In this document: positions 2,949 to 20,369 of the stretch, one piece after another
Layout of the letters: every line of letters begins with the position of its first letter
Numbering within the stretch: the first letter of the stretch is position 1
Virus record (IMG/VR): IMGVR_UViG_3300037466_002980
Span: 160,001-224,000 of that record
Direction: 5' to 3' (one strand)
DNA from: a virus
Taxonomy: Duplodnaviria; Heunggongvirae; Uroviricota; Caudoviricetes
DNA: 64,000 nt
Notes under the pieces: model-generated
Told to the model about the DNA's origin: nothing
The model's input: the letters and a program-made list of their open reading frames with translations, nothing else
Databases searched by the model: none
Made by a program: the position numbers and the translations under genes

Positions 2949-3071
2949 CTTAATAATTTAAAATTATCGTAATAAAAATTTATACGATCTGTATGGCTCT
3001 AATTAGTTATATTGGAAGTATTTACTCTTTTTAGGTAAAAACTCCCAAATAATTCAACTTTTACAACAAGA

Positions 3072-3929: not shown

Positions 3930-3930
3930 T

Positions 3931-5526: not shown

Positions 5527-5532
5527 GTTTTA

Positions 5533-6767: not shown

Positions 6768-6790
6768 ATTTGCTATTTATCGCAATTTTT

Positions 6791-6866
6791 TGGCAGGGGC
6801 GGCAGGAATCGAACCTAGCTAACCACGGGTCAAAGCCGAGTATGCATACCATTGCATATCACCCCG
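6791..6866 (-). tRNA. tRNA-Gln(TTG)
   Basis: Loop CT-TTG-AC, T arm, GCCA end. Confidence 0.85.
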
Positions 6867-6874
6867 ATAAAAGG

Positions 6875-6939
6875 CAGAATGTTTGTTTTCACTGGTTTTG
6901 ATTAAAAGTCAAATAGTTTGAATTTGCTGTAAACATTCT
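6875..6939 (-). ncRNA. CAGCAA-stem RNA copy A, carrying a Lys(UUU) anticodon arm
   Basis: AGAATGTTT-ACAGCAA...TTTGA-CTTTTAA-TCAAA...AAACATTCTG. Confidence 0.65.
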
Positions 6940-6952
6940 TTAAAAATCAAAA

Positions 6953-7048
6953 CAGAATTCTTTTTATACAATGCACCATGTTTATGAGACATGAAACATC
7001 GATAGGAGTCGAACCTACTTTTCCAATATGGATTGCTGTAAGAATTCT
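6953..7048 (-). ncRNA. CAGCAA-stem RNA copy B, with T arm and CAU anticodon arm
   Basis: AGAATTCTT-ACAGCAA...GTAGG-TTCGACT-CCTAT...CATGT-CTCATAA-ACATG...AAGAATTCTG. Confidence 0.65.
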
Positions 7049-7056
7049 TAAAAACC

Positions 7057-7169
7057 TTCTAATATTACCGAGTGGTTGACTAGACACACTCTACGATTTA
7101 TCTTCGAAGATGCAGCTTCGTTGACTCACGGATAATCGCTAAATCCTATGTTGTCAGGTAATATCAGAA
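7057..7169 (-). ncRNA. Unidentified structured RNA
   Basis: 13-bp closing stem TTCTGATATTACC/GGTAATATTAGAA (G:U on minus strand). Confidence 0.45.
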
Positions 7170-7175
7170 TAAAAA

Positions 7176-7237
7176 TGGAGCGGTTCCACGGGTCGGACTG
7201 GTTACCGTGCGTCAGGAACGTTGACACTTTTCACTCC
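7176..7237 (-). ncRNA. Small GC-rich structured RNA, possible pseudoknot
   Basis: GGAGTG/CGCTCC closing stem, two hairpins, loop GTTCC complementary to 3' GGAAC. Confidence 0.45.
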
Positions 7238-7243
7238 AAAACT

Positions 7244-7320
7244 TGGTACGGACAGTGGGATTCGAACCCACACTTTACAGATTTTAAATCAGTTGACTCT
7301 ACCCATTGGCCTATGCCCGC
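7244..7320 (-). tRNA. tRNA-Leu(TAA), short variable arm
   Basis: Loop TT-TAA-AA, ACCA end. Confidence 0.85.
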
Positions 7321-7325
7321 AAATT

Positions 7326-7484
7326 CTATTTAAAACGTCGAAAAATTTCTTCTCGAACATCATCATAATCAATATCAAGTTCTCTTAATCTATCAAATTC
7401 ATTGGTGGCTTCATAATGCCACATTTTCACAAATGATTCAAATAAATCCAATAAGGCTGAATTTGATAAATCTTCTAATTTCAT
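7326..7484 (-). CDS. 52-aa hypothetical protein (not in ORF track)
   Basis: MKLEDLSNSALL...RRFK* exactly fills the gap between two tRNAs. Confidence 0.5.
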   Translation of the reverse strand: MKLEDLSNSALLDLFESFVKMWHYEATNEFDRLRELDIDYDDVREEIFRRFK

Positions 7485-7490
7485 AAATTC

Positions 7491-7565
7491 TGGTAGGGCT
7501 GGGGAATTTCGAAATCCCGGCCAACGGATTAAAAGTCCGCTGCTCTGCCTCTGAGCTACAACCCC
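7491..7565 (-). tRNA. tRNA-Lys(TTT)
   Basis: GCGGA-CTTTTAA-TCCGT, ACCA end. Confidence 0.9.
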
Positions 7566-7846
7566 AAAATCTCTAAATAATCTTTTAACACTTCATCGGG
7601 AAGATCGGTCCATAATCGAGAAAAATATCGGTGACTTCCTTTACCATTAAAGGGAAATTCGAGATCACAAGAATGAACATGTAATTCTATTTTTGCTCTA
7701 TCTTCATACACATTATATGATGGCCATATTGATTGAAATTTCTTAGAATTAGCCAATAACCAATCATTCTTATATTCGCCATTTCTTCGGCACATTGGTT
7801 GCCAGCCTTGTAATGCTAAGAATAATCTTTCTTCTCGGTATATCAT
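7556..7846 (-). CDS. Hypothetical protein
   Basis: ORF track; coupled to upstream ORF. Confidence 0.6.
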   Translation of the reverse strand: MIYREERLFLALQGWQPMCRRNGEYKNDWLLANSKKFQSIWPSYNVYEDRAKIELHVHSCDLEFPFNGKGSHRYFSRLWTDLPDEVLKDYLEILGL

Positions 7847-8097
7847 TTTTCAATTAGATGTCCAAATTTCAACTTAAATTGAAGAAACCAAGGTTTATAC
7901 CTTTCTCTTCCATTAAGTTTGAGTTCCCAATACGAAAACATCCATTGAACTGCCCAGCCTGTGCCATTTGCACGCCATCTGGGCCTATTAATTAAATATA
8001 CCTCTTCCTTACCGACATTATCGATTAGAGTTTGAATTATAGATTGCACTTCTGCGTTATCTATATCCGAATCTACAATCTTTAATTTTATCTTCAT
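7843..8097 (-). CDS. Hypothetical protein
   Basis: Start moved to ATG just after tRNA-Pro. Confidence 0.6.
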   Translation of the reverse strand: MKIKLKIVDSDIDNAEVQSIIQTLIDNVGKEEVYLINRPRWRANGTGWAVQWMFSYWELKLNGRERYKPWFLQFKLKFGHLIEK

Positions 8098-8173
8098 TGG
8101 TCTCCGTACCGGGATTTGAACCCGGACCATATCGCCCCGAACGATACATGCAACCAGATAACACTTTACAGAG
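8098..8173 (-). tRNA. tRNA-Pro(CGG)
   Basis: TATCG-TTCGGGG-CGATA, C1:G72, A73. Confidence 0.9.
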
Positions 8174-8178
8174 AAAAA

Positions 8179-8739
8179 TCAGATTAGATTTTCTGTTCGA
8201 AGGATATCAACAATTGAATCCTTTAATGTGACTTCTGTTCTAACGTTTAATTCAAGAACTTCATCGTTGATCTTGTTCTTCATTTTCTTGATATCAAGAA
8301 TTTCTTTCTTAAATTCTTCAATATCCTTGTCGGTAAATACACCTGTCTTCACAGAGTCTTCGTGATAGTAGGCTGCTTCTTTTCTATGACGAATCTTTTC
8401 TAATTTACCTTTGATTACTTCGACTTCTTCTGATTTCGGCGATTCAGACCAAACCTTAAGTTGTGCAATTTTCTTATCCATAAAAGCAAGTTCGGAAAGT
8501 TTTTCATTTACACCCGATATTGCATTAACTCGTCCAATTTCTTCCCTTAAGGCATATTGTGCCTTAAGAAGGTCTTTAGTTCTCTTAACCTTTAATAATG
8601 CTTCTTCACGTGCCTTACCAAGGATTTCCGAAACACTCTGAAATTCGTTTAAATCGATCGTAGATTCGATCTTAATTTCTTTAATTTGATCTTGAATTGC
8701 GACCTGAATTGCGTTTGCTTTGCGAAGTGTTACTTTCAT
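8179..8739 (-). CDS. Coiled-coil protein
   Basis: SD AAAGG; Lys/Glu-rich heptads. Confidence 0.75.
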   Translation of the reverse strand: MKVTLRKANAIQVAIQDQIKEIKIESTIDLNEFQSVSEILGKAREEALLKVKRTKDLLKAQYALREEIGRVNAISGVNEKLSELAFMDKKIAQLKVWSESPKSEEVEVIKGKLEKIRHRKEAAYYHEDSVKTGVFTDKDIEEFKKEILDIKKMKNKINDEVLELNVRTEVTLKDSIVDILRTENLI

Positions 8740-8770
8740 TCTAAAACCTTTCTAAATTTGTAATACAGTA

Positions 8771-8984
8771 AAAACGTATGGTAAGCAAATAGCCGGACAA
8801 AATGCAAAAAACATAGAGACCAAATAATTCTTACCCTAAACAACTTTCAATATACAGAGATTCTAATATTCCCGAAAATCAACAAACATGGCAGAGCCTT
8901 TTAGTTTCGGATCACTAGAATACGAATAGTGTTCAGAACCTAAAACCAAGGTTCTGGTTGCTATTCCTCATCTCCATACATTTT
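8771..8984 (-). ncRNA. Structured RNA with 7-nt-periodic UG tracts, upstream of coiled-coil gene
   Basis: Closing stem AAAATGTATGG/CCATACGTTTT; internal hairpin CAGAACCT/AGGTTCTG. Confidence 0.5.
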
Positions 8985-9064
8985 CACCGGTTAGTTTTCT
9001 ATGAAAACTAACAAAACTTATTCTATTTTAAAGTACACTATTTCTAATATACTTTAAAATAGTA

Positions 9065-9966
9065 GGACTGAGATTACATCCTTACTGATCGGTACCTCGT
9101 ATATTATTTCAATATCTTGCGGGATATTGATTCTTACGATATCCACTAGGTCTGTTTTCACAGTATCCTAGTCTACCGACAACATCGCCTTTTAAAGTCA
9201 GGCAGTAGACTTGACATGATATTCTACTCTATAATTTCCATTCCGTCTGCCTTGCGAGCAGTTCATTGGTGCTAACCAATTACGAAACATCTATTATAAA
9301 TCAACTTGGCCTTGCGAGCTTTCGTCGAACTTAGTTACCTTACGGTCTAAGTATTAGATGTCTTTCAAATATCACCGAGGCAGTCTTTGCATTTTAATAC
9401 ACGGTTGGAATCGAACCAACTGCTTTCTGTTAGGATACAGACACTCTACCAAATGAGTTACATTGCAACCTACTATGATGTGCTACCTCAGCTGCTATAT
9501 ACCTTGTTAGATACACAATACAGCACACCACGTATCTTTCATCTCGCGGATTACTCGATTGTCTTTCACGATATATGTCAAGAGTCTCGGCGTTTTCGCG
9601 TATCTTGCCATTTACCATTCAAACTGCATTCAAGCCCTTACTTGCGAGGTTCGGACAAGAACACTACCCTTTCTCATACCAATTAACAAATTGGTTTATT
9701 GTGAGGTCAGCACCACCTGTTACTCTCCGCCAACTAACGTTCCCTTTCGGCGTTTAAGTTGGCGTTCTTTCCACAACATTTGCTTTATTGTTACTTCGTC
9801 CGGTCTTATCAGACAAAGCTCCCTCACGGGAGTGAGCAGGCCTGCTTAATGATCCATTACTGGCGGTAGTATGTAGGCTTCCTACCTTTTTCACTCCTTG
9901 CGGAGATCCTTCTTCAATAACCAGCTGGGCGAACCATACTGGTTATTAGGGGTTCAAGCTCCCCGA
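9065..9966 (-). ncRNA. GOLLD-like giant RNA with embedded degenerate tRNA (~9388-9468)
   Basis: ~900 nt, GC-elevated, no credible ORF, many GNRA hairpins (GCAA, GTAA, GAAA, GTGA), 3' GTAATCTCAG, tRNA-cluster location; family call from memory of the consensus. Confidence 0.7.
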
Positions 9967-9972
9967 AATTCT

Positions 9973-10308
9973 TTACTTATATCTATACTGTTCTCTTATT
10001 CTTGTTTGTACTTCAGCATTATTATTTTTCTTCTTCATCCATTCATGAACAATGGGTGCCCAAATACTAATATGATTCCATGCATTTCCACCTTCACGAA
10101 CTAATCCGAGGTTTTCAAATGCTAAATCGTGACGACCATTTGCTTCCTCGTATTGTTTTCTTAATTTTTTCTGTCTAGTTTCACTAAGTTCGCTGGGATG
10201 AATGGATAATTTAACTCTTTCTTCGCGATCACCATAACGTCCATTCCATGACCAATCATAATTTTTATCTTTTGTTTTTTGTTTTTTGTTCATAGTGTTA
10301 ATCAACAA
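9973..10308 (-). CDS. Basic hypothetical protein
   Basis: ORF track; start may be ATG at ~10293. Confidence 0.6.
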   Translation of the reverse strand: MLINTMNKKQKTKDKNYDWSWNGRYGDREERVKLSIHPSELSETRQKKLRKQYEEANGRHDLAFENLGLVREGGNAWNHISIWAPIVHEWMKKKNNNAEVQTRIREQYRYK

Positions 10309-10316
10309 CAGACTCT

Positions 10317-10345
10317 AGTTTATAAAATTTTAGTTTACATGTCAA
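10317..10345 (-). promoter_or_regulatory. sigma70-type promoter
   Basis: TTGACA-17 nt-TAAACT. Confidence 0.7.
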
Positions 10346-10357
10346 CTTGATTTTTAA

Positions 10358-11149
10358 TTAATTAAATCCCAATTCTTTTCTAATCTTAGTTGCTGAAATA
10401 GACATGATACTTTCATCGAAAATTTCTTCTTCGATTTTATATCCAACATTTCGACCATATGTGATATTAACAATATTAGGTACTCTAATAATTTCAAATT
10501 GTCCTTGATAAATCGGATCTAAATCTTTCTTGATAAATTCTCTTGATTGGTCAAAAGAAAATGGATTACTTTCATTCCAATGTTGGCAATCACGAATCAT
10601 AATTGCAACCTGTCCTGTCTTAGCAATTGCTCTTTCAAATAAATTTCTATGACCTTTATGCCAAGGTTGCCATCTGCCGAGCATTTGAACTGTTTCTTTT
10701 TTCCAATCAAAAACAGGACGGCGTTTATCTTCTATAAGATGATGTCCAATAAATGAAGACCAAACTTCAGAATTTTGTTCAGTAATTCGAAAATCATACG
10801 AATCCGGATTGACAAACATCTTATTTGTATCTTCAAATCTTCCTTTTTCGATAGTATCGAGCCAAATAAACCAGTCTGCATTGAAATGATGTCTCATTTC
10901 AATCAATGGTGCAACAAAATCACAAATAACAAAGTCTGTGTTTTCTTGTTCAGCAAGTTCGGACATTCTCTTACTTTGACGGATTCTGCCTTCATAGGAA
11001 AAATCAAAATCATCAAACTTTGTTCTTATCTCGTCAGCGTTGAACCACGAAACTGTCTTATTATTTGTTTCGAGATATTCTTTTAATTTTCCGGCTAAAG
11101 TTGTCTTCCCGGCACCGGGTAAACCCATAATTAATATTTTCTTAGGCAT
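10358..11149 (-). CDS. APS kinase-like domain fused to HxGH nucleotidyltransferase domain
   Basis: GLPGAGKTT P-loop, NADEIR, FVAP; C-terminal GRWQPWHKGH and ISATKIR. Confidence 0.8.
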   Translation of the reverse strand: MPKKILIMGLPGAGKTTLAGKLKEYLETNNKTVSWFNADEIRTKFDDFDFSYEGRIRQSKRMSELAEQENTDFVICDFVAPLIEMRHHFNADWFIWLDTIEKGRFEDTNKMFVNPDSYDFRITEQNSEVWSSFIGHHLIEDKRRPVFDWKKETVQMLGRWQPWHKGHRNLFERAIAKTGQVAIMIRDCQHWNESNPFSFDQSREFIKKDLDPIYQGQFEIIRVPNIVNITYGRNVGYKIEEEIFDESIMSISATKIRKELGFN

Positions 11150-11507
11150 TTAAATTCCTTTTTTCCCACTTTTCACGTGCCTTCTTAATATCATACTGAA
11201 TTGCAGCAGCACAAGAAAATTGCATTCCTATTTGAAAATTACAATGATTTAATTTAAATGGTTTCAGTACTCTATCACCATTCCACCAACGACGTTCGGT
11301 TTTTATAAGTCCTTTTTCTTCGAGTTCATTTCGAAGTCTTGTAAATTCTGGATGATCAATACTAGAGTGGCAACTATAATCGCCTTTACCTTGAAGTAAT
11401 AAAATTATATCTTCTTCTGTCTTTTCTTTCTTTTCTTTAATGTAATTACCACTATAATGGATTTCTACTGATTTAAGAAATTGTTCGTCAATATAAAATT
11501 GTTTCAT
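11142..11507 (-). CDS. Hypothetical protein
   Basis: ORF track, operon-coupled. Confidence 0.65.
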   Translation of the reverse strand: MKQFYIDEQFLKSVEIHYSGNYIKEKKEKTEEDIILLLQGKGDYSCHSSIDHPEFTRLRNELEEKGLIKTERRWWNGDRVLKPFKLNHCNFQIGMQFSCAAAIQYDIKKAREKWEKRNLNA

Positions 11508-11520
11508 AATGTTCTATAAA

Positions 11521-11609
11521 TGGCGGAAAGTATAGGATTCGAACCTATGCATCCATTTTCTGAACGACAGTTTAGCAAACTGCTGCCTTAACCACTCGGC
11601 CAACTTTCC
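11521..11609 (-). tRNA. tRNA-Ser(GCT)
   Basis: Loop TT-GCT-AA, long variable arm, GCCA. Confidence 0.92.
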
Positions 11610-11612
11610 AAA

Positions 11613-11912
11613 TTAATTGTTATCCGATTTAGCAATTGCGCTCATAAGACATAATGCATTTATTCGCAATTCTTTTGTTTTTCTATTATCGGGATTTCCA
11701 AATACACCCTTAACGAGCGTGTTCTTATTTAATTGATTTTGAAACAAATATGCAATTGCCAGCGATTCCGGATCATTATAATCAAAAAATTTCATTGACA
11801 TTTGCTTCTTATGTTTTAACATGTAAATGGCATGACAAGCATACCTTGCTTTATTGGAAAATACCAATTCGGCTGCTTTTCTATATAATTCACTTTGTTT
11901 CATATCTATCAA
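11613..11912 (-). CDS. Hypothetical protein
   Basis: ORF track between tRNAs. Confidence 0.6.
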   Translation of the reverse strand: MIDMKQSELYRKAAELVFSNKARYACHAIYMLKHKKQMSMKFFDYNDPESLAIAYLFQNQLNKNTLVKGVFGNPDNRKTKELRINALCLMSAIAKSDNN

Positions 11913-11956
11913 TATTTGAATCTATATTATACCGTCTTAAATTTGAAATAGCAATT

Positions 11957-12031
11957 TGGCAAGGGCTGATGTATTCGAAACATCTACAATCACGCTCAGA
12001 ACGTGACGCGTCGCCATTCCGCCTAGCCCCA
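11957..12031 (-). tRNA. tRNA-Gln(CTG), atypical D region
   Basis: TCACG-TTCTGAG-CGTGA, GCCA. Confidence 0.75.
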
Positions 12032-12040
12032 ATAAATCTA

Positions 12041-12115
12041 TGGACCCGCTTAGAGGAATCAAACCTCTATCTTAAGTTTCGAAGACTTTTATATTATTCA
12101 TTATACGAAAGCGGG
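12041..12115 (-). tRNA. tRNA-Arg(TCG), divergent D/T loops
   Basis: Loop CT-TCG-AA; lacks D-loop GG; T loop TTTGATT. Confidence 0.7.
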
Positions 12116-12122
12116 AAAAATC

Positions 12123-12198
12123 TGGTGGAACACATGGGAGTCGAACCCACCTAATCTACCTTATGAGAGTAGTGCATCAGCCGCTCTGCCAATGTTCC
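12123..12198 (-). tRNA. tRNA-Met or Ile2 (CAT)
   Basis: Loop CT-CAT-AA, ACCA. Confidence 0.85.
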
Positions 12199-12203
12199 GA
12201 AAA

Positions 12204-12254
12204 CAGGTTACGTTTCTTTTTACCAAAATAGAATTAAATTGCCGAATGTAACCT
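12204..12254 (-). ncRNA. CAGCAA-stem RNA copy C (minimal, CGGCAA variant)
   Basis: AGGTTAC-ATT-CGGCAA...GTAACCTG. Confidence 0.55.
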
Positions 12255-12260
12255 TTAAAA

Positions 12261-12336
12261 TGGTGCTGCCTCGTGGAATCGAACCACGTTCACATGCTCT
12301 TCAGGCACGCGCTATGACCACATCAGCTAAAGCAGC
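12261..12336 (-). tRNA. tRNA-Phe(GAA)
   Basis: Loop CT-GAA-GA, ACCA. Confidence 0.9.
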
Positions 12337-12337
12337 A

Positions 12338-12691
12338 TTAATCTTTAAAGACATGTATTTCTTCTCTTTTCTTCTTTAATTTAACTTCTTGTTCATCATA
12401 ATGATGTTCGAGATAAAGAATTAAACCTTCGTCAAACGTCCAATTATTTTGTTTACAGAAATTACTAAACATTAGGAAATCTTTTGAATATGCTTCCGGC
12501 ACATAAATTTTTGATTGTTTTAGTAATTCTAAAAATTCAGTTGGCGGAGTTCTTTTAAGATGACGGAAAACTTTCTCATCTGCATTATTTGAACCATTCT
12601 GGAACATCTCTTTCCTTCCACGATGCAATTTCTTGCTTATATTTTTTATAATAATTTCTATAACTTTGAATAGGATCATCTGTCTTAACAT
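12338..12691 (-). CDS. Hypothetical protein (true start probably ~12607)
   Basis: ORF track; 5' part overlaps upstream gene. Confidence 0.5.
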   Translation of the reverse strand: MLRQMILFKVIEIIIKNISKKLHRGRKEMFQNGSNNADEKVFRHLKRTPPTEFLELLKQSKIYVPEAYSKDFLMFSNFCKQNNWTFDEGLILYLEHHYDEQEVKLKKKREEIHVFKD

Positions 12692-13046
12692 CCCCCGGCA
12701 TTGCTAATCTAAAAGGTGTTTTACCGATTGCAGGCAATGCAGGAACAGGTAATATTTGAATAACATCAAATGCCTTATGATTGATAGATTTCTTATATCT
12801 ATATTGATATTCTTTATTTAATTCTGTTGCTAAATCTCTTAACCATAACCAATTATCAAGTGATTCCCTAACCCAAATTGCACTAGGATGATTTTTATGT
12901 GTTATCTTGTAACCTATATCATTTCCCGATAATCTAACTGCTGTACTCAATAATTGAGCATATTCGGTAATCATCTTCACTACATGTTTATCTACATGGT
13001 AGGTTGCATTTAGATAATGATTATTGTCTAAATAAAAAATATTCAT
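12585..13046 (-). CDS. Pyrimidine-dimer DNA glycosylase/endonuclease V-like protein
   Basis: MNIFYLD...DKHVVKM..E.AQLLST, H.NHP..W motifs. Confidence 0.75.
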   Translation of the reverse strand: MNIFYLDNNHYLNATYHVDKHVVKMITEYAQLLSTAVRLSGNDIGYKITHKNHPSAIWVRESLDNWLWLRDLATELNKEYQYRYKKSINHKAFDVIQILPVPALPAIGKTPFRLAMPGDVKTDDPIQSYRNYYKKYKQEIASWKERDVPEWFK

Positions 13047-13240
13047 TCTATGTCTTTAGGACTAACTAAAATCCATCTAACATTTCCGGATGAATCTGAA
13101 AATTCTAATTCAATGCCATATTCGTTAATCTCCGAAATGGATCCTTCAACGCAATCAGAAACTAATTTCTTAATTGCAATTTGATCTTCTTCGGGAAGTC
13201 CATTAAGCAACTCCGGCGATGCTTGTTTTAGTTTTACCAT
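13043..13240 (-). CDS. Hypothetical protein
   Basis: Start moved downstream of tRNA-Gly. Confidence 0.55.
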   Translation of the reverse strand: MVKLKQASPELLNGLPEEDQIAIKKLVSDCVEGSISEINEYGIELEFSDSSGNVRWILVSPKDIE

Positions 13241-13256
13241 ATGTACTTGATTAATT

Positions 13257-13330
13257 TGGAGCGGGTAACGAGAATCGAACTCGTACGATAACCATGGCAA
13301 GGTCACAGGCAACCATTACATCATACCCGC
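13257..13330 (-). tRNA. tRNA-Gly(GCC)
   Basis: GCGGG start, loop TT-GCC-AT, TCCA. Confidence 0.9.
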
Positions 13331-13331
13331 A

Positions 13332-13571
13332 TTATTCTACTAATTTGTTTACTTCTTCGAAACTAATCTCTTGTAATGTTCTTTCGTTTAACCCTCGTCT
13401 GGGGTTAGAACACATCCAACAACTACATGGTTTTGGTGTATCTACAACCATTCCGAGTTGCCTTCCCGGATCTAACTCATTATTAATATGGTGCAAATCT
13501 TTACCCCAATAGAAACGACGTTTTTTCTTTAATCTTTCTATATGAGCTCTTCTTTCAGATCTATCTCTCAT
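13332..13571 (-). CDS. Small basic protein with CSCxxC motif
   Basis: SD AGGAG; PKPCSCWMCSNPRR. Confidence 0.7.
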   Translation of the reverse strand: MRDRSERRAHIERLKKKRRFYWGKDLHHINNELDPGRQLGMVVDTPKPCSCWMCSNPRRGLNERTLQEISFEEVNKLVE

Positions 13572-13581
13572 ATTATTCTCC

Positions 13582-13672
13582 TGGAGGAAGAAGGACGTAT
13601 CGAACGCCTACCGAAAAATATCGATACCTCTGTTTTCGAAACAGCGATGGGGACCTCCCCACAACATCTTCC
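13582..13672 (-). tRNA. tRNA-Ser(CGA) with tRNA-Sec-like 8/4 (allo-tRNA-type) fold
   Basis: 8-bp acceptor GGAAGATG/CTTCTTCC, 4-bp T stem, 6-bp D stem with 4-nt loop, long variable arm. Confidence 0.75.
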
Positions 13673-13681
13673 GATAAAATC

Positions 13682-13755
13682 TGGTAGGTCATGACAGAAT
13701 CGAACTGCCGTCATTGCCTTGTAAAAGCAAGGTTCTCCCATTAAACTAATGACCC
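13682..13755 (-). tRNA. tRNA-Val(TAC)
   Basis: Loop TT-TAC-AA, ACCA. Confidence 0.9.
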
Positions 13756-13770
13756 AATTTAATACTGTTT

Positions 13771-13799
13771 ATTCTAAATTATTTCAGAATGATTGTCAA
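13771..13799 (-). promoter_or_regulatory. Internal sigma70-type promoter
   Basis: TTGACA-17 nt-TAGAAT. Confidence 0.75.
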
Positions 13800-13800
13800 G

Positions 13801-13877
13801 TGGTACCCCTGGTAAGATTCGAACCTACAACCAACAACTTTTGAGGATGTCCGCACTACCAATTAGCGTACAGGGGC
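13801..13877 (-). tRNA. tRNA-Leu(CAA), short variable arm
   Basis: Loop CT-CAA-AA, ACCA. Confidence 0.8.
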
Positions 13878-13886
13878 ATTTTTATT

Positions 13887-13974
13887 TGGAGTGCCGTACT
13901 GGATTCTAACCAGTGTGGGATTTTAATCCATCAGTTTTGCAGACTGCTGCCTTCGTACGCTCGACCAACGGCAC
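13887..13974 (-). tRNA. tRNA-Cys(GCA) with long variable arm
   Basis: Loop CT-GCA-AA, U73, variable arm TGGATTAAAATCCCAC. Confidence 0.8.
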
Positions 13975-13980
13975 ATTATT

Positions 13981-14074
13981 TGGTGGGTGTTGTGGGTTAT
14001 CGAACCACGACCCCTATTATCCATATTCACTGGTAGTGATAGATAACAGTGCTCTCCCTCTGAGCTAAACTCCC
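13981..14074 (-). ncRNA. tRNA-like RNA with elongated anticodon arm and no canonical anticodon loop
   Basis: Acceptor, D and T arms and ACCA present; ~15-bp anticodon helix capped by ACC triloop. Confidence 0.7.
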
Positions 14075-14078
14075 AATA

Positions 14079-14282
14079 TTAGAATAAAATTCTATATCTA
14101 TATTGAATTCCACCTCGAATATATATTGCACTTGATGAACTCTTATCCTTTTGATAATTTCCATCATTTGTTATAGTAGGAAATAGATCCGAGGTAAGAT
14201 AAAATTTACCGTGTTCGAATTGCATTGAAGAACATCCGGTAGATAGTACACCGAACAGTACAATAGATAATAGGCGTTTCAT
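14079..14282 (-). CDS. Small lipoprotein-like protein
   Basis: MKRLL...LSTGC lipobox. Confidence 0.55.
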   Translation of the reverse strand: MKRLLSIVLFGVLSTGCSSMQFEHGKFYLTSDLFPTITNDGNYQKDKSSSSAIYIRGGIQYRYRILF

Positions 14283-14298
14283 TACATTATTTATTATC

Positions 14299-14374
14299 TG
14301 GGCGGTCATTACGGTTACGATCCGTTCTTACCTGTTTCACAGACAGGGGTGGTAGCCACTCCACTAAATGCCGC
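14299..14374 (-). tRNA. tRNA-His(GTG), atypical T loop
   Basis: CCTGT-CTGTGAA-ACAGG; G-1:C73. Confidence 0.8.
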
Positions 14375-14386
14375 ATAAATTCAAAA

Positions 14387-14507
14387 CAGGTTCGCATTTT
14401 TTAAGTTCTACCGCTAAACTAATGTGGCGACCAACTCACATCCGGGATTCGAACCCGGGCCTTCCTTTTACAATAAAGATATAATTTAAATTTGCTGAAA
14501 CGAACCT
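14387..14507 (-). ncRNA. CAGCAA-stem RNA copy D, YrlA-like permuted tRNA mimic
   Basis: AGGTTCG-TTT-CAGCAA, loop AT-TGT-AA, T arm, closed acceptor ATGTG/CACAT, D arm, CGAACCTG. Confidence 0.75.
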
Positions 14508-14512
14508 AATGG

Positions 14513-14932
14513 TCAATTCTTTTTTAATTCCTCAATCAATTCTTCTACATTGTAGAATACACCACTGGCAAATTGATACATGACATCCCAACGTTCGGGA
14601 TTGTCTAATAGGATATAACCAGGTTTTCCACAACCGATAACGTATCCTAATTCTAAATGTGCAGATTTTCCTGCAGGTAATGCTAGAACTGCGATATCAT
14701 TTCTGTCAAGGTGAAATTTATCGAAATTATAGACATGCTTCGCTGCATATCCTTGTAGAGCAGTTTTGTAATCATGCCCCTTTGCTTTCTCGTGATCTCT
14801 CCAACAGTCATCTGCATTCTCGGAAGCTGACCACCAATCATCAAATACTTCGTGTCCTGCATTTCGCAATTTATTAGCGATATTAACAATTTCTGTATTT
14901 CTTAATGAACCGATTAAATAAATGTTTGCCAT
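14513..14932 (-). CDS. Nucleoside 2-deoxyribosyltransferase-like protein
   Basis: IYLIGS...D...LPAGKSAHLELGY pattern. Confidence 0.65.
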   Translation of the reverse strand: MANIYLIGSLRNTEIVNIANKLRNAGHEVFDDWWSASENADDCWRDHEKAKGHDYKTALQGYAAKHVYNFDKFHLDRNDIAVLALPAGKSAHLELGYVIGCGKPGYILLDNPERWDVMYQFASGVFYNVEELIEELKKN

Positions 14933-15089
14933 AATGTAATACTTTAAAACAAATACTTATTTAATGCAAGATTCTTCATTTAGAATTACGAACATATTCA
15001 ATATATTGTTAGAAATTCTGTGATGGGGTTCACTTACGCCGGTACAATCCGGTTCCCATAACCCTCTGGGTAAACATAACAATATAATC

Positions 15090-15167
15090 TGGTACCCAAG
15101 GTGGGATTCGAACCCACACTGTACGGTTTCTAAAACCGGTGTCTCCTGCCAATTGCACTACTTGGGC
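15090..15167 (-). tRNA. tRNA-Leu(TAG), short variable arm
   Basis: Loop TT-TAG-AA, ACCA. Confidence 0.85.
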
Positions 15168-15244
15168 ATAAGGAATAGTAACAGATTCGTTCACATACGG
15201 CTCCCGCCTCCACTGTATATTCCTGTAAAATATTTCAAATAGAA

Positions 15245-15313
15245 TGGTTGTAGTGGACTCGAACCACCTCTCCCGCTTGAATGGCGAGTATCCTGCCCCT
15301 AGACGAACAACAT
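15245..15313 (-). pseudogene. Degenerate tRNA-Glu-like RNA (A33, 5-bp acceptor)
   Basis: CTCGC-CATTCAA-GCGGG, intact T arm, truncated acceptor. Confidence 0.55.
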
Positions 15314-15320
15314 ATTTGAA

Positions 15321-15444
15321 TTCTTAAGTATGATTACTCATACTGTCCATTGTCACTTCATTGACCTACTTTGATTGTGTTCCTTGCCATCGGTCGACGT
15401 TCGTTTCGCGACTCAGTTGGAAATAGACTAGCCATACTTAAGAA
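15321..15444 (-). ncRNA. Unidentified structured RNA
   Basis: Perfect 12-bp closing stem TTCTTAAGTATG/CATACTTAAGAA. Confidence 0.45.
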
Positions 15445-15446
15445 AT

Positions 15447-15520
15447 TGGCATCCCGGGAAGGACTCGAACCCTCACAAACAGTTTTGGAGACTGTGGTGC
15501 TGCCATTACACTACCGAGAT
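15447..15520 (-). tRNA. tRNA-Trp(CCA)
   Basis: ACAGT-CTCCAAA-ACTGT, GCCA. Confidence 0.92.
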
Positions 15521-15526
15521 AAAAAT

Positions 15527-15602
15527 TGGCTCCGGTGACTGGGATCGAACCAATGACCAACGGATTAACAATCCGCCGCTCTACCTACTGAGCTACACCG
15601 GA
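15527..15602 (-). tRNA. tRNA-Asn(GTT)
   Basis: TCC start, loop TT-GTT-AA, GCCA. Confidence 0.92.
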
Positions 15603-16106
15603 ATAAAAACATATTCTTTCAAATATTTCTATTGCATTTTCTTTTAAAATCCATTCTCCTGATTCATTTGTTATATTTGGATGTTGAAGTATTTGTTTTT
15701 CAACATCCTTTCTATTAAGAACAAAATCATATTTTTCAATCTTAAATCTTCGAAATGGATCATATGTCTGATATTGATTTAATCTTGTATTTAAATCAAG
15801 AGTCATTCCGATTTTGTAATGATCTTGATATATCGGATTAGAAATTATATATACCAATCCAGAATCGATATCGTTAAATTTTGCACCATATTGATAATTA
15901 ACCTTCAATAATGTTAATCCGGCTAATCGTCTTGCAAATCTATATTGATTTTTTCTTATTAAACCTTTATTTTTCTTATTAAATATTTTTCCATATATTT
16001 TTATATATTCATTAAGAATATTATCATTTATTTGAAATATATCTTTAGGAATCACAGAATTCGCTATCATTTCGTCGATAACAATTCTCTCAAATTCCTT
16101 CAACAT
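15585..16106 (-). CDS. GIY-YIG-like (T5orf172-type) endonuclease domain protein
   Basis: VYII...YKIGMT...R...YQT...GEW. Confidence 0.7.
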   Translation of the reverse strand: MLKEFERIVIDEMIANSVIPKDIFQINDNILNEYIKIYGKIFNKKNKGLIRKNQYRFARRLAGLTLLKVNYQYGAKFNDIDSGLVYIISNPIYQDHYKIGMTLDLNTRLNQYQTYDPFRRFKIEKYDFVLNRKDVEKQILQHPNITNESGEWILKENAIEIFERICFYSGVAQ

Positions 16107-16412
16107 TTAAACCTTACCTTTTAGAAAATTTGCTGTATCATCTTCATCGATTTCACTGTAGACAGGAATATCTGGATCTCTTCTTCCACCTAACCAACGA
16201 TATATTTTTGTCTGATAGAGTGAACTTTTACTTAAAGCAGCATCTAATGCTATTTTATGTCCATCTCTCATAATTTCGATTTTTCGATTACCACTATCAT
16301 TTTCATAACAATGAATATAATACTCCGTAGTATAATATCCATTTGATACCTTATGATTAAATGTTTTTACATGAACAAATTTTTCTTTTTTCTTAAACCA
16401 AGGAAAAATCAT
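16107..16412 (-). CDS. Hypothetical protein, paralog 2
   Basis: Shares RW..GR.DPDIP.Y.EIDE.DTAN.LKGKV with neighbour. Confidence 0.75.
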   Translation of the reverse strand: MIFPWFKKKEKFVHVKTFNHKVSNGYYTTEYYIHCYENDSGNRKIEIMRDGHKIALDAALSKSSLYQTKIYRWLGGRRDPDIPVYSEIDEDDTANFLKGKV

Positions 16413-16729
16413 ACCTTACCTTTCAGATAATTAGCAGTATCCTCTTCATCAATTTCATCATATTGTGGAATATCGGGATCTTTTCTTCCCAATTCCCACC
16501 GTCTAATTTTTTCATGATATATGGTTCGTTGATTTGCAATATATGCAAGATCTACTTTCTTTTCGTACGTCGAAGAAAATTCAACCTGTCTGTTATCTTT
16601 ATTAGATTGAAGTAAATTATAGTAAAAGGTAATATCAACTTCACCATCATGTGTGTTGAGTTTAAAATTTTCAGAAATTATTTTTACTAATTTCCATTTT
16701 TCTTTTTCAAATCTTTTAAATATCGACAT
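16409..16729 (-). CDS. Hypothetical protein, paralog 1
   Basis: Tandem paralog of 16107-16412. Confidence 0.75.
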   Translation of the reverse strand: MSIFKRFEKEKWKLVKIISENFKLNTHDGEVDITFYYNLLQSNKDNRQVEFSSTYEKKVDLAYIANQRTIYHEKIRRWELGRKDPDIPQYDEIDEEDTANYLKGKV

Positions 16730-16734
16730 ATTTT

Positions 16735-16808
16735 TGGTGCGGGTACCGGGAATCGAACTCGAGACTTCTGTTTGGAAGACAAATGTTATACCACTTAACT
16801 ATACACGC
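16735..16808 (-). tRNA. tRNA-Gly(TCC)
   Basis: Loop CT-TCC-AA, GCG start. Confidence 0.85.
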
Positions 16809-16820
16809 ATTAATTTAGAA

Positions 16821-16999
16821 TGTCAACTATGATTAATTTGCTTTCTTTCGCCACCTATTCCGTCGAAACGGTTTGGACTTACACCATGCTGATAGGCTAT
16901 TGCATTATTGCCGGAAGAATTTGAACCATTATCCTGAGCGAAATACTCTGTCGATAGTAATCAGCTATCCTAGCAAATCAAAAAATAATTATAGTCACA
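16821..16999 (-). ncRNA. Unidentified ~180-nt structured RNA
   Basis: Nested pairings GACTAT/ATAGTT, ATTTGCT/AGCAAAT, GCTGAT/ATCAGC. Confidence 0.45.
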
Positions 17000-17139
17000 T
17001 GGAAGATTTGATATCATGGCGTCCCAAGTATCATCACATTACCACTTACGTCTTCACTATGTAGAACTTCTCCAACACGTAGAGCTTCACACATAGGAGT
17101 AGAACCATATGACTCACTAGGAGCTACCTAATAGAAAAC

Positions 17140-17262
17140 TGGTCTCGCCTGAGGGAATCGAACCCCCTCCTCTCCCTTCTGATGGAATTGAAATTTAGTG
17201 CTGAACGAATTCTTAGACAGAATTGCTTTCGTTTAGCGTGCTAGCCGTTACACCAAGGCGAA
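17140..17262 (-). ncRNA. 123-nt tRNA-like RNA with CAGCA-stem module inserted in the anticodon arm
   Basis: Normal acceptor, D, T and ACCA; insert AATTCTG-TCTA-AGAATT-CGTT-CAGCAC; loop AT-CAG-AA. Confidence 0.7.
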
Positions 17263-17267
17263 AAATA

Positions 17268-17329
17268 TGGCAGGCCCTCATGAATCCGAGTATAAGGTTT
17301 TGGACATCATAGTGACATCGGGAGCGCCT
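17268..17329 (-). ncRNA. Small CCA-ended stem RNA
   Basis: AGGCGCTC/GAGGGCCT-GCCA, no T loop. Confidence 0.45.
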
Positions 17330-17342
17330 ATAAAATCATTAC

Positions 17343-17418
17343 TGGTAGGGGCACTGGGACTCGAACCCAAGAACTCACGGTTTAAGAGACCGGTACGTTA
17401 CCATTACGCCATACCCCC
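17343..17418 (-). tRNA. tRNA-Lys(CTT)
   Basis: Loop CT-CTT-AA, ACCA. Confidence 0.88.
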
Positions 17419-17488
17419 AAATCGAAATAGCGGCTTTCAAGACCGGTTTCAATAAATTTTGCAAATTTAATATATTTCGATCAAAAAT

Positions 17489-17567
17489 TGGCGTCCCTAC
17501 GGGGATTCGAACCCACGCTTTTTACCTTGAAAGGGTAACGTCCTCAAACCATATAGACGATAGAGAC
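17489..17567 (-). tRNA. tRNA-Glu(TTC)
   Basis: TTACC-CTTTCAA-GGTAA, GCCA. Confidence 0.9.
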
Positions 17568-17578
17568 AAGAAAAATAT

Positions 17579-17653
17579 TGGCATCCCGTAGGGGTTTCGA
17601 TCCTTCTCATTAGTTTGAAGGACTAACGGCCACGGCCAGCTGCCTCACGGGAT
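17579..17653 (-). tRNA. Atypical tRNA-Glu-like (C33, G8, A54)
   Basis: TTAGT-CCTTCAA-ACTAA; perfect acceptor ATCCCGT/ACGGGAT-GCCA. Confidence 0.65.
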
Positions 17654-17654
17654 A

Positions 17655-17954
17655 TTAAGGAATATAATCGAAAGGTCTATGATACTGATCTTTTCGATTA
17701 TCCATATAATTCATTATAAAAATTTGTGGAATTATGTGCATTCCTGGATCAAGTCGAAGTTTGAAAAATTCTAAACAGTCGTTCTCTTTTAATTCAACCT
17801 CAAAAATATTTCCATCAAAAATTCTAGCCAGAGAGTTATATCGAAATTCTATTTTCTTAACACCTAATCTTATTCTTGTTTTTTCGTAATCCGGCCAGTC
17901 ATCGGCGGGATAATTAACCGAAATTTCAATACCGATATATAAAATTCTAGACAT
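17655..17954 (-). CDS. Hypothetical protein
   Basis: ORF fills gap between tRNAs. Confidence 0.6.
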   Translation of the reverse strand: MSRILYIGIEISVNYPADDWPDYEKTRIRLGVKKIEFRYNSLARIFDGNIFEVELKENDCLEFFKLRLDPGMHIIPQIFIMNYMDNRKDQYHRPFDYIP

Positions 17955-17968
17955 GGTTGAATTATTAA

Positions 17969-18043
17969 TGGTGCTCCCGAAAGGAATCGAACCTTACGTC
18001 TTCGCGTTATCAGCACGCTGCTCTGCCATTGAGCTACAGGAGC
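17969..18043 (-). tRNA. tRNA-Ile(GAT)
   Basis: Loop CT-GAT-AA, ACCA. Confidence 0.9.
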
Positions 18044-18058
18044 AAAATTAAAATAGGA

Positions 18059-18195
18059 CAGGATCACTTTTTACGTTGCTCTACCAAACTGAGCTATTGC
18101 TTCGTTAAATGTAACAAAAATACACTTAACGAAGCAAGTGGGATTTGAACCCACGACCTACGGCTTGACATGCTAATGATTGCTGCAGGGATCCT
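18059..18195 (-). ncRNA. CAGCAA-stem RNA copy E, YrlA-like permuted tRNA mimic
   Basis: AGGATC-CCTG-CAGCAA, loop AT-GTC-AA, T arm, closed acceptor TTGCTTCGTTAA/TTAACGAAGCAA, D arm GCTC/GAGC, GATCCTG. Confidence 0.75.
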
Positions 18196-18203
18196 TTAAA
18201 AAC

Positions 18204-18278
18204 TGGTCAGGGAGCACAGAATCGAACTGTGTCTACGAGGCTCCAAAGCTCGGCGGCTAACCATTACCATACACCCTG
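18204..18278 (-). tRNA. tRNA-Pro(TGG)
   Basis: Loop TT-TGG-AG, C1:G72, A73. Confidence 0.85.
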
Positions 18279-18375
18279 AAAAACTTTGGTAGATTATATA
18301 CGCCATCATACCGGGGCAATTATCTAATGTAATAATGCAGATTGGAATAGGAAGTCTTTCTATATTACATCTAAC

Positions 18376-18453
18376 TGGAGCTCCCAGAAGGAATCAAACC
18401 TTCATCCACGGACTACAAAACCGTTATAATCTAATCCATTATACTATAGGAGC
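18376..18453 (-). tRNA. tRNA-Thr(TGT)
   Basis: Loop TT-TGT-AG, TCCA. Confidence 0.8.
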
Positions 18454-18460
18454 AAAAAGT

Positions 18461-18536
18461 TGGCGCCGCCAAGGAGGATCGAACTCCTACTACAACCGTG
18501 ACAGGGTCGCGTGCAGTACCACTACACTATGGCGGC
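18461..18536 (-). tRNA. tRNA-Asp(GTC)
   Basis: Loop CT-GTC-AC, GCCA. Confidence 0.9.
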
Positions 18537-18540
18537 AAAT

Positions 18541-18585
18541 TGGTCTAGGTATCCAGTATATTTCTATAGTAACCAGGTAACCCAG
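18541..18585 (-). ncRNA. CCA-ended minihelix with G3:U70/A73
   Basis: CTGGGT...ACCTAG-ACCA hairpin, GAAA loop. Confidence 0.45.
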
Positions 18586-18712
18586 ATGAAATTAGACAAG
18601 CTTCACACTTGATTGAACGTTCCATTCGCTTACTGCAACGTCTAAGCTTCGCTCGGTTTCTCTCGCGCCTTTAACATTCTAGCAAGCGCGGCTATGTACA
18701 CAGAGAGAAATT

Positions 18713-18788
18713 TGGTGGACCAGGAGGGAATCGAACCCTACTTACAATTTCCTTGCAAGGGAAACCAGTAACCCCATTACTCAAGCCC
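18713..18788 (-). tRNA. tRNA-Ala(TGC), reduced D arm
   Basis: TTTCC-CTTGCAA-GGAAA, G3:U70, ACCA. Confidence 0.8.
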
Positions 18789-18795
18789 ATAATTC

Positions 18796-18880
18796 TGGTG
18801 GAGTAGCTAGGAATCGAACCTAGATGATCAGTGATGACAGTTTTACAGACTGCCCCGCCTCCATAACGGTCTACTACTCC
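18796..18880 (-). tRNA. tRNA-Tyr(GTA)
   Basis: Loop CT-GTA-AA, long variable arm, ACCA. Confidence 0.9.
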
Positions 18881-19085
18881 AAAACACTCTTTCGAATGTT
18901 GATATTAAAATACACCATTTTTGATATATTTTAATATCCTAGATTTTTACCACCTACGTTATCTCCATAGGCTTCTCATCTTCTAGTACGCCCTCATTAA
19001 TAGCTAGATGTTTTTACGGTGCCTGGCAGGATCGCGTTTCCTATACACACCGTCCATAATACGTCCTTAGACTTAACATGGAAAT

Positions 19086-19174
19086 AAAAAAGCCGCTTAG
19101 TTTCCTAGCGGCTTCCTTATATAAACTTTCTAGATTTACTTTATGTATTTCTAGTCTCCTTATATAAGGAAGCC
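19086..19174 (-). promoter_or_regulatory. Attenuator: terminator (19114-19086) competing with antiterminator (19174-19159 paired to 19125-19110)
   Basis: AAGCCGCTAG-GAAA-CTAAGCGGCTTTTTT; GGCTTCCTTATATAAG complementary to TTTATATAAGGAAGCC. Confidence 0.85.
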
Positions 19175-19290
19175 TTGGTAGGGTTTTGTTCAATCTCTGT
19201 ACTATTACCTGCCCAATAAAATCCACAGAGATGCATACGATCTAACATCGCATCTACTGTCGGTTTATTAAAACGGTTAATGTAATTCAT
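19141..19290 (-). CDS. 49-aa leader peptide containing all 20 amino acids (not in ORF track)
   Basis: SD AGGA; MNYINRFNKPTVDAMLDRMHLCGFYWAGNSTEIEQNPTKASLYKETRNT*. Confidence 0.8.
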   Translation of the reverse strand: MNYINRFNKPTVDAMLDRMHLCGFYWAGNSTEIEQNPTKASLYKETRNT

Positions 19291-19338
19291 TTTATTCCTA
19301 AAAACTCTCTACTGCACAGACCCATTCTATGCAATGTT

Positions 19339-19378
19339 TATTTATCTCAATTGTAGCAAACGTTTTAATCTACGTCAA
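19339..19378 (-). promoter_or_regulatory. Promoters for the tRNA array: sigma70 plus late-type GATAAATA
   Basis: TTGACG-17 nt-TACAAT with extended TG (19378-19350); GATAAATA at 19346-19339. Confidence 0.75.
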
Positions 19379-19712
19379 CTATATCAAGATGATTTACAAT
19401 TAATTCTGGCTACTTAAAAGTTATAGAAAATCTGCTAAGTTACAACGGTTATCTTCTGTAAACAGATATATATTCGCCTTCAATTTTATTTATCATCGAC
19501 GATTTTACACATACTTAATATAGGTGTCAAATCGCATCTTTTATTGTTTTAGATAGGTGCCGATCCACTATCAATTTATATCGGATGTTAAGTTTTCTTC
19601 TATTCATCACCATAAAACAATATCGCAATTATATATAATTAATTCAGTGTGTCAAGTGGTTTATCAATTTCCAATATTTATCAATGTGATAAATAATAGA
19701 AAATGAGGTAAT

Positions 19713-20369
19713 ATGAATAATTTCTATGTGTATGCTTATATCCGAAGTAAAGATAGCAAAACTGCGAAAGCAGGCACACCATATTATATTGGAAAAGGAA
19801 CTGAAAATCGAAGGTTTCGAAAACATGTCAACATATCAATACCTAACAAAAATTTTATTCTTATAATTGAAAATGATCTTACTGAAATTGGTGCATTAGC
19901 TATAGAACGTAGATTAATTAAATGGTGGGGAAGAAAGAATACAGGAACAGGCATTCTTCTAAATAGAACAGATGGTGGTGAAGGAATCTCTGGTTATAAG
20001 CATACAGAAAATGCTAAAAATAGAATCGGTCAGGCATCTATAGGCAGAAATAAGGGACCAAAAATACTCTCAAACGAAACAAAAAGAAAAATATCGACTT
20101 CATTGAAAGGAAAGAAAAAGCCACCAAGGACAAAAGAACATGCTTTGAAAATATCAGAAGCACTCAAAGGAAAAATTTGCAATGACCTCGAAATTGAACA
20201 ACTAAACAAAATGGTTGAAAAAATTAAGGTTCCTGTTCAAATCTTCGGAAAACAATATTCATCGATAACCGAAGCATCCTTGGCCTTAAATATACATCAT
20301 GAAACGATAAGATATAGATTAAAATCCAAAAATTATCCAGAATATATACAAGAGAAAAAAAATGCCTAG
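19713..20369 (+). CDS. Free-standing GIY-YIG homing endonuclease with NUMOD3-like repeats
   Basis: YVYAY...YYIGKG...R; LNRTDGGEG; HTE..K.KIS repeats. Confidence 0.85.
   Translation: MNNFYVYAYIRSKDSKTAKAGTPYYIGKGTENRRFRKHVNISIPNKNFILIIENDLTEIGALAIERRLIKWWGRKNTGTGILLNRTDGGEGISGYKHTENAKNRIGQASIGRNKGPKILSNETKRKISTSLKGKKKPPRTKEHALKISEALKGKICNDLEIEQLNKMVEKIKVPVQIFGKQYSSITEASLALNIHHETIRYRLKSKNYPEYIQEKKNA

Follow-up and report, generated by a model that had tools for sequence, protein, structure and literature searches.

The 64,000-nucleotide (nt) stretch analysed here (the window) comprises bases 160001-224000 of a 362,810 base pair (bp) IMG/VR virus record with direct terminal repeats. At the head of its transfer RNA (tRNA) array lies a short leader open reading frame (ORF) of 49 codons plus TAA (19141-19290), which encodes all 20 amino acids and is followed by an antiterminator helix and an intrinsic terminator. 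The leader is very probably translated and selected for the completeness of its amino-acid set. The favored reading, held with modest confidence, is that it is a ribosome-mediated leader-peptide attenuator, which would sense a shortage of any aminoacyl-tRNA and gate the phage tRNA array. An earlier sequence-only reading of this stretch had proposed a general tRNA-failure attenuator, and the completeness of the homologues, the covariation, the array context and the folding models now lend support to that proposal. Unless a strand is given, all features described below are on the minus strand.

The promoter, Shine-Dalgarno sequence and 49-codon ORF that were proposed from the letters are all present as described. 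The alphabet of 20 amino acids is filled at codon 35 and the first 39 codons include 29 distinct codons; a recount gave the same figures as before. A Shine-Dalgarno-like AGGA (19296-19299) is located 6 nt 5' of the ATG, and its GGA is kept in relatives. Codons 1-37 (19180-19290), in which the amino-acid set is already complete, form the proposed sensing zone, with a boundary derived from the ribosome geometry discussed below.

Completeness of the leader peptides

The completeness of a single leader is within chance. A random 49-residue window contains all 20 amino acids in 1.4% (natural windows) to 1.7% (independent and identically distributed residues) of cases. In this genome, 13 of the 591 ATG-initiated ORFs of 40-65 residues are also complete. 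Completeness becomes significant only across homologues.

Homologues were collected in several ways. Using the neighboring structural protein as a seed gave 80 related loci, seven of which held an alignable leader. Viral and metagenome contigs were then scanned with DNA patterns specifying only the helix arm and the terminator; therefore, the composition of the upstream peptide cannot be biased by the scan. This yielded 40 distinct full-length leaders of 49-63 residues with a mean pairwise identity of 57% and a minimum of 27%. Three further sequences from different samples (L103, L111 and L131) have in common the loss of 1 nt from an A run that comes right after the EQDPI-K codons and the sensing zone. 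Their tail is in a shifted frame, which also has its stop codon in the hairpin loop. A search of 1.84 billion proteins with a profile built from the 40 leaders, taking one representative per 50%-identity cluster, recovered 70 small proteins with a mean pairwise identity of 38%. The RNA was analyzed in an alignment of 38 sequences (A2). Searches with blastn and tblastn of the leader against the INPHARED phages gave no usable match, and a peptide-word search of viral contigs, using the single peptide and an 8-sequence alignment, recovered no relatives. In L109 (283-462) and five other loci a 12-nt unit is tandemly triplicated (CAGY-CAGY-CAGYW), and both the frame and the completeness are kept.

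The sequence-only reading had staked its case on homologous leaders being complete as well, and they largely are. All 40 full-length leaders from the DNA scan contain the 20 amino acids, as do two of the three frameshifted variants, for a total of 42 of 43 distinct sequences; the third variant, L103, is without Trp through a single TGG-to-TCG difference. Among the profile-search representatives, 58 of 70 are complete. These counts were compared with column shuffles, which keep the residue preferences of each alignment column. For the 40 leaders the shuffles predict 18.0 complete sequences with a maximum of 27, and the observed count was reached in none of 5000 shuffles. For the 70 representatives the expectation is 18.5 with a maximum of 31, and the observed count was reached in none of 3000. 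A tree-aware simulation, which used a FastTree tree, column-specific frequencies, parsimony-scaled rates and a real complete leaf as the root, gave an expectation of 16-25 complete sequences out of 39 and a maximum of 35, with all 39 complete in 0 of 1200 runs.

The set is kept while the residues relocate. Val occurs in 19 alignment columns and His in 9. About 5.4 amino acids per leader occur only once, and among the 40 leaders Trp is single-copy in 40, Cys in 34 and Arg in 29. One clade has ACLRAG where its sisters have ARLCAG, so that the only Arg and the only Cys have been swapped by two point changes. EQDP is changed to EQNP in the examples inspected (the window, L097, L101, L110 and L115), with another Asp found elsewhere in the peptide. 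Together these patterns, seen across more than 100 homologues, show that completeness is a selected property of the family, though not an absolute one.

Antiterminator helix, terminator and modelled switch

Arm A of the antiterminator helix spans codons 39-44 (K-A-S-L-Y-K; 19159-19174) and pairs with arm B (19110-19125), the last 3 nt of which (GCC) are the first 3 nt of the terminator stem. The 16-bp helix formed by codons 39-44 that had been noted from the sequence is present, with exact arms at 19174-19159 and 19125-19110. It consists of 15 Watson-Crick pairs and one G.U pair, and the A:B hairpin folded alone has an energy of -28.4 kcal/mol (z = -7.6). An inner helix, CUAGA/UCUAG (19130-19154), closes a loop that contains the stop codon (19143-19141). 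The intrinsic terminator (19082-19112) has an 8-bp stem with a bulged A and a GAAA loop. The stem, GCCGCUAG-GAAA-CU-A-AGCGGC, is located at 19112-19092 and is followed by U6AUUU at 19091-19082. Folded alone, the terminator has an energy of -11.1 kcal/mol; a consensus terminator scan missed it because of the bulged A. The overlap of arm B and the terminator is 3 nt, or 5 nt if the A-U extension is counted. The shared GCC and the U6 run are both invariant in the 38-sequence alignment.

Covarying helices, which the sequence-only reading had suggested looking for in relatives, are found in A:B, the inner helix and the terminator. The A:B helix has compensatory changes at 4 pairs. One of these, C:G to U:A, occurs through a synonymous TCC-to-TCU change in three separate sequences, and the pair next to it shows the same C:G to U:A change in L179. 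In the inner helix G:C is replaced by A:U in 4 sequences. In the terminator stem G:C is replaced by A:U in 3 sequences and by U:A in 1.

The two structures are thermodynamic alternatives. The minimum-energy fold of the window sequence from arm A through the terminator 3' arm keeps all 16 A:B pairs and reduces the terminator to a 5-bp stub, with 3 nt between its end and the U tract. A stub of this kind should not terminate transcription. In partition-function models of the 38 homologues, the mean probability of the terminator basal pairs is 0.32 when the RNA is free or a ribosome is at codon 15, and 0.99 when a ribosome covers arm A. The claim that completion of the leader masks the antiterminator and lets the terminator form agrees with these models, in which the full terminator is predicted only with arm A masked.

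The position of the alphabet within the leader also fits the attenuator model well. A ribosome with a hungry A-site codon unwinds messenger RNA (mRNA) to about +11/+12 from the first P-site base. If a is the Ala codon of arm A, the arm starts at the third base of codon a-1; the last stall that leaves arm A free is thus at a-3. By codon a-3 the alphabet is complete in 39 of the 40 leaders from the DNA scan, and the same holds for 54 of the 57 complete representatives. The residue that fills the set most often stands at a-3 itself, where it is the Ile of EQDPI; it is hardly ever located in the tail.

In the proposed mechanism, transcripts would start at promoters upstream of 19338, and a ribosome would load at the AGGA/ATG and follow the RNA polymerase. 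If codons 1 to about 37 are decoded without delay, the ribosome would be on or beyond arm A as arm B and the terminator emerge. Arm B would then be free, the full terminator with its U tract would form, and transcription would stop before the array. With a ribosome halted at any sensing-zone codon, or with none loaded, arm A would pair with arm B and take the GCC and the A-rich run from the terminator. Only the 5-bp stub, 3 nt off the U tract, would be left, and the polymerase would read through into a structured RNA and the tRNA genes. The new phage tRNAs would restore decoding, which would close a negative feedback loop. The trigger may be cleavage or depletion of host tRNAs, or amino-acid shortage. 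The fullest form of this proposal is an "alphabet" sensor, in which every amino acid is selected for and a stall at any hungry codon deploys the full tRNA set, with feedback, when host tRNAs are cleaved or depleted by defense systems or by the infection; this form is about as likely as not.

Close coupling of ribosome and polymerase might be assisted by a mid-leader hairpin, AGAUGC/GCAUCU (19229-19255, -9 kcal/mol), which was proposed earlier as a possible pause hairpin. The sequence is indeed present, but the hairpin alone is not significant (z = -1.5). Relatives have a hairpin with other stem sequences at the matching relative position, with weak z-scores that are mostly -1 to -2.

The tRNA array, promoters and related phages

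As had been noted, the downstream tRNAs cover all 20 amino acids. The co-directional array (2873-18877) holds 27 tRNAs and continues past the window start. In the three complete genomes examined (G000, G002 and G003, the present one included), an all-20 leader precedes an array covering all 20 amino acids. Across the family, a same-strand tRNA array is found 3' of the cassette in 35 of the 38 loci with at least 300 nt of flank, and the other three have less than 900 nt. The first tRNA is usually tRNA-Tyr, 220-300 nt past the terminator.

The spacer between the terminator and the first tRNA (18878-19081, about 200 nt) is itself a conserved structured RNA and the first element to be made whenever transcription reads through. 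Its predicted multi-helix fold comprises 57 pairs, 32 of which show compensatory changes among 10 relatives, and it contains conserved loops such as AACGAG and CACUGUAAAAAACAU. An Rfam search over 18880-19400 with E up to 1 gave no match to any family, T-box included. Inspection by eye of the aligned terminator-to-tRNA spacer found no conserved sigma70-type promoter, and a promoter scan of the spacer lists only a 9/12 match at 19084-19056.

Other RNAs are found in or near the array. A full-length GOLLD RNA (Rfam RF02032, 198.9 bits) is inside it at 9065-9531. A permuted transfer-messenger RNA (tmRNA) near the array end (426-939; RF04321, 122 bits) has the ARAGORN tag AANDAVFALAA, and G002 and G003 have a permuted tmRNA at the same relative place. 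A weak YrlA/Y-RNA-like match of 39.5 bits, which is below the gathering score, is located between tRNA-Pro and tRNA-Ile (18072-18162). The G000, G002 and G003 arrays each have a Pyl tRNA called by ARAGORN with a CUA anticodon, which is amber-suppressor-like, and Phosso has two.

Three sigma70-like promoters are predicted upstream of the leader. The farthest, TTGACA-16-TATAAT (19628-19655), is a 12/12 consensus match. The second, TTGACA-17-TAAAAT (19502-19530), matches at 11/12 and lies in a stretch that is also alike in relatives. The proximal one, TTGACG-17-TACAAT with a TG (19350-19378), was found by the consensus scan and is a weaker match than the other two. A GATAAATAA motif (19338-19346), the core of which, GATAAATA, is invariant in 38/38 aligned relatives, is located downstream of the proximal promoter, and a second match (19486-19494) is downstream of the second promoter. 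With a plus-strand site at 19688 and 20 others, the motif occurs 23 times in the genome compared to about 10 expected (about 2.3-fold), and at most sites an ORF start lies 15-50 nt downstream. In sequence the motif is similar to the T4 late promoter TATAAATA, and it probably serves this phage as a promoter motif of its own, like the late promoter of T4. The leader transcript has a 5' hairpin (19311-19335, -11.3 kcal/mol) with compensatory changes in 6 of 7 pairs across relatives. In the 38-sequence alignment this hairpin follows the invariant GATGATAAATAA.

A structural protein encoded near the leader has 40% identity to a virion protein of the Pseudomonas jumbo phage PA5oct and 33-35% identity to proteins of Atu_ph07, Phosso and SCTP-2. 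The sequencing runs listed for the leader stretch are all DNA, from rhizosphere and soil metagenomes. The structural gene is separated from the divergent leader promoters by an inserted 218-residue ORF (19713-20369, plus strand), which has a GIY-YIG-like N-terminus as well as NUMOD3 and NUMOD1 motifs; it is probably a homing endonuclease.

No all-20 leader was found at the array heads of PA5oct, SCTP-2, Atu_ph07, Phosso or a 608-kb contig, and PA5oct, SCTP-2 and the 608-kb contig have no comparable cassette there. Since none was found in these more distant phages, the all-20 form belongs to a single large clade of jumbo phages from soil and freshwater. The Agrobacterium phage Atu_ph07 has the same ATGATAAATAACTTTGT motif ahead of its tRNA array, followed by a 42-codon ORF with 18 kinds of amino acid. 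This ORF includes an 8-nt complement to the terminator 5' arm of that phage, about 180 nt ahead of the first tRNA, and in the models its switch is modest (0.53 to 0.92). In Phosso the ORF has 54 codons and 19 kinds of amino acid, there is no equilibrium switch, and promoters are located downstream of the terminator. The terminator of Phosso (L154, 1440-1475) has the same AGGAAACU loop as that of the window, with different stems. The layout of an ORF plus a terminator may be older than the all-20 form.

The possibility that the amino acids missing from a leader mirror the tRNAs missing from its array was considered and is not supported by Atu_ph07, Phosso or the representative P0019. The Atu_ph07 leader is without Cys and Leu, and the tRNA stretches inspected show no Cys, Asn or Thr. 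The Phosso leader is without Cys, yet its array has tRNA-Cys.

Alternative explanations and known systems

The frame and the alphabet of the leader seem to matter and the peptide sequence does not: replacement is near neutral, there is no confident fold and no Pfam family, and the frame is open in every homologue. An untranslated structured 5' leader or insulating terminator with an accidental ORF is extremely improbable. The completeness of one sequence, at the level of the 13 complete small ORFs among 591, would be compatible with an accident, and the chance that a random frame of 49 codons is open is about 4%. However, the frame is open with ATG and GGA in 43/43 distinct DNA-scan sequences and is likewise open in the 70 representatives, at mean identities of 38-57%, and all length differences are multiples of 3 apart from the one tail frameshift. 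It is also improbable, if less so, that the leader is simply a small protein-coding gene of the phage that has a 3' hairpin and terminator of its own and lies ahead of the tRNA array by chance, with completeness as a by-product of composition. The ORF is kept with its start codon and Shine-Dalgarno sequence, GYW and EQDP are nearly invariant, and gene callers predict the ORF in many metagenomes, all of which would suit such a gene. Completeness is nevertheless more frequent than under any of the column-preserving and tree-aware nulls. The differences at the three codon positions are 0.33, 0.31 and 0.40, and the ratio of non-synonymous to synonymous differences is 4.4 to 1, a near-neutral value. 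AlphaFold2, run with the alignment of 40 sequences, gave a predicted local distance difference test score (pLDDT) of 56.8 and a predicted template modelling score (pTM) of 0.17, which is not a confident fold, and a Pfam search of the leader peptide found no family. Arm A of the covarying RNA helix determines the C-terminal 10-12 residues (ASFYKESG..), and this is the part in which a frameshift is tolerated.

The remaining alternative keeps a translated sensor of general decoding and changes the output, which would not be termination at this terminator. Ribosome position could instead determine whether A:B is cleaved by ribonuclease (RNase) III or E, or how stable the downstream structured RNA is and how it folds, or the response could have the opposite polarity. 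This is rather unlikely, and clearly less so than the two explanations above. Selection on the frame and on completeness needs translation but leaves the output unfixed. The A:B and inner helices together make a stem of about 21 bp, which is the size of an RNase III substrate, a strongly covarying RNA begins right after the terminator, and arm B shares little with the terminator stem. On the other hand, a terminator with an invariant U6 is found immediately 3' of arm B in every homologue, the GCC is invariant, and the folding models show mutual exclusion of A:B and the terminator. The Atu_ph07 ORF, which is complementary to its own terminator, has the same logic in a different sequence. The ORF more likely than not works as a stall-to-read-through attenuator of the tRNA array.

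Several observations weigh against the attenuator, in whole or in part. Twelve of the 70 distant representatives (about 17%) are without one or two amino acids, and tRNA-Cys is among the genes of the array behind the P0019 leader, which has no Cys. A sensor of composition alone would not require GYW and EQDP blocks as conserved as those observed. Most of the evidence for the a-3 boundary comes from a single conserved block, which makes it about one evolutionary observation, and the boundary was noticed after the fact. The equilibrium switch is only about threefold (0.32 to 0.99) and not all-or-none. With a ribosome at the stop codon, a pure masking model gives a terminator probability of just 0.40; this ribosome would thread the 31-nt loop, and a steric separation of the arms by it is an assumption. 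Most relatives have a C.A mismatch in the middle of the A:B helix and some have a second, so that the effective helix in these relatives is 9 G+C-rich basal pairs plus 4 more. The stretch common to arm B and the terminator is only 3 nt. RNAalifold on the family favors a local hairpin inside arm A and a terminator that extends into the A-rich part of arm B; therefore, alternative folds exist. Finally, sigma70-like sites inside the array (16826, 13799 and 10345) could drive downstream tRNAs independently. The sequence-only reading had named internal promoters at 13799 and 10345, and sigma70-like sites do occur at both positions, but such sites are no more frequent in the array than in shuffles and the internal promoters thus stay unproven. 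Because of them, direct control by the leader may extend only over the initial part of the array, a limit that the sequence-only reading also proposed.

The reason for tRNA genes in phages has long been debated, and the regulation of these genes is essentially undescribed. Recent work has tied phage tRNA genes to escape from host defenses that cleave tRNAs (PMC10264068, PMC11464382, PMC11555353). Full-text literature searches turned up no description of phage tRNA genes preceded by a leader peptide or attenuator, and none of a leader in which all amino acids occur. The cassette would be leader-peptide attenuation with an unprecedented sensing principle and target. If the proposal is true, this peptide family would be the first, to the authors' knowledge, in which compositional completeness and not sequence is under selection, and the leader would be the first known general translation-capacity sensor to control tRNA genes. 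The phage would gauge the decoding capacity of the cell codon by codon and would express its full tRNA set only in the event of a shortfall. Selection that acts on which amino acids a peptide contains, and not on its sequence, would escape standard measures of conservation. At about 300 nt, the cassette could serve as a natural reporter of charged-tRNA sufficiency.

The proposed attenuator shares parts of its logic with several known systems. T-box riboswitches also sense tRNA charging and use a terminator/antiterminator switch ahead of translation-related genes. However, they bind one uncharged tRNA directly and need no ORF, and the leader region has no T-box match in Rfam. The ermC and cat-type leaders and bmrB-bmrCD are ribosome-stalling leader ORFs that sense translation inhibitors. 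They resemble the present leader in that slowing of a ribosome on the ORF leads to downstream expression, as a general sensor of the state of translation, but they depend on a specific nascent-peptide or drug arrest and lack compositional completeness. To our knowledge, no leader of this type controls tRNA genes or is carried by a phage. In Escherichia coli, attenuation of pheST through the pheM leader responds to charged-tRNA supply and controls a gene of the decoding machinery. The two cases are alike in linking charged-tRNA supply to the expression of a decoding component; pheM senses Phe only and controls a synthetase, whereas the leader described here would sense 20 amino acids and control tRNA genes.

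Several features are also common to the attenuators of amino-acid operons (trpL, hisL, leuL, pheL, thrL and the multivalent ilvGMEDA leader). In these, a short translated leader is located upstream of an intrinsic terminator, an alternative helix of the leader RNA excludes the terminator, the position of the lead ribosome decides between them, and a stall gives read-through. The present cassette has a leader ORF with a ribosome-binding site, an intrinsic terminator and a predicted alternative pairing that can be masked. The operon leaders use the 1:2, 2:3 and 3:4 scheme, whereas the cassette has a single long antiterminator hairpin with its 5' arm inside the ORF; as a result, the lack of translation should also give read-through. 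The classical systems control biosynthetic enzymes, and the targets here would be phage genes for tRNAs and other RNAs. The cassette departs most from the classical family in its codons: regulatory codons are clustered or repeated in the operon leaders, whereas the leader described here has no runs and spells out all 20 amino acids, about five of them only once.

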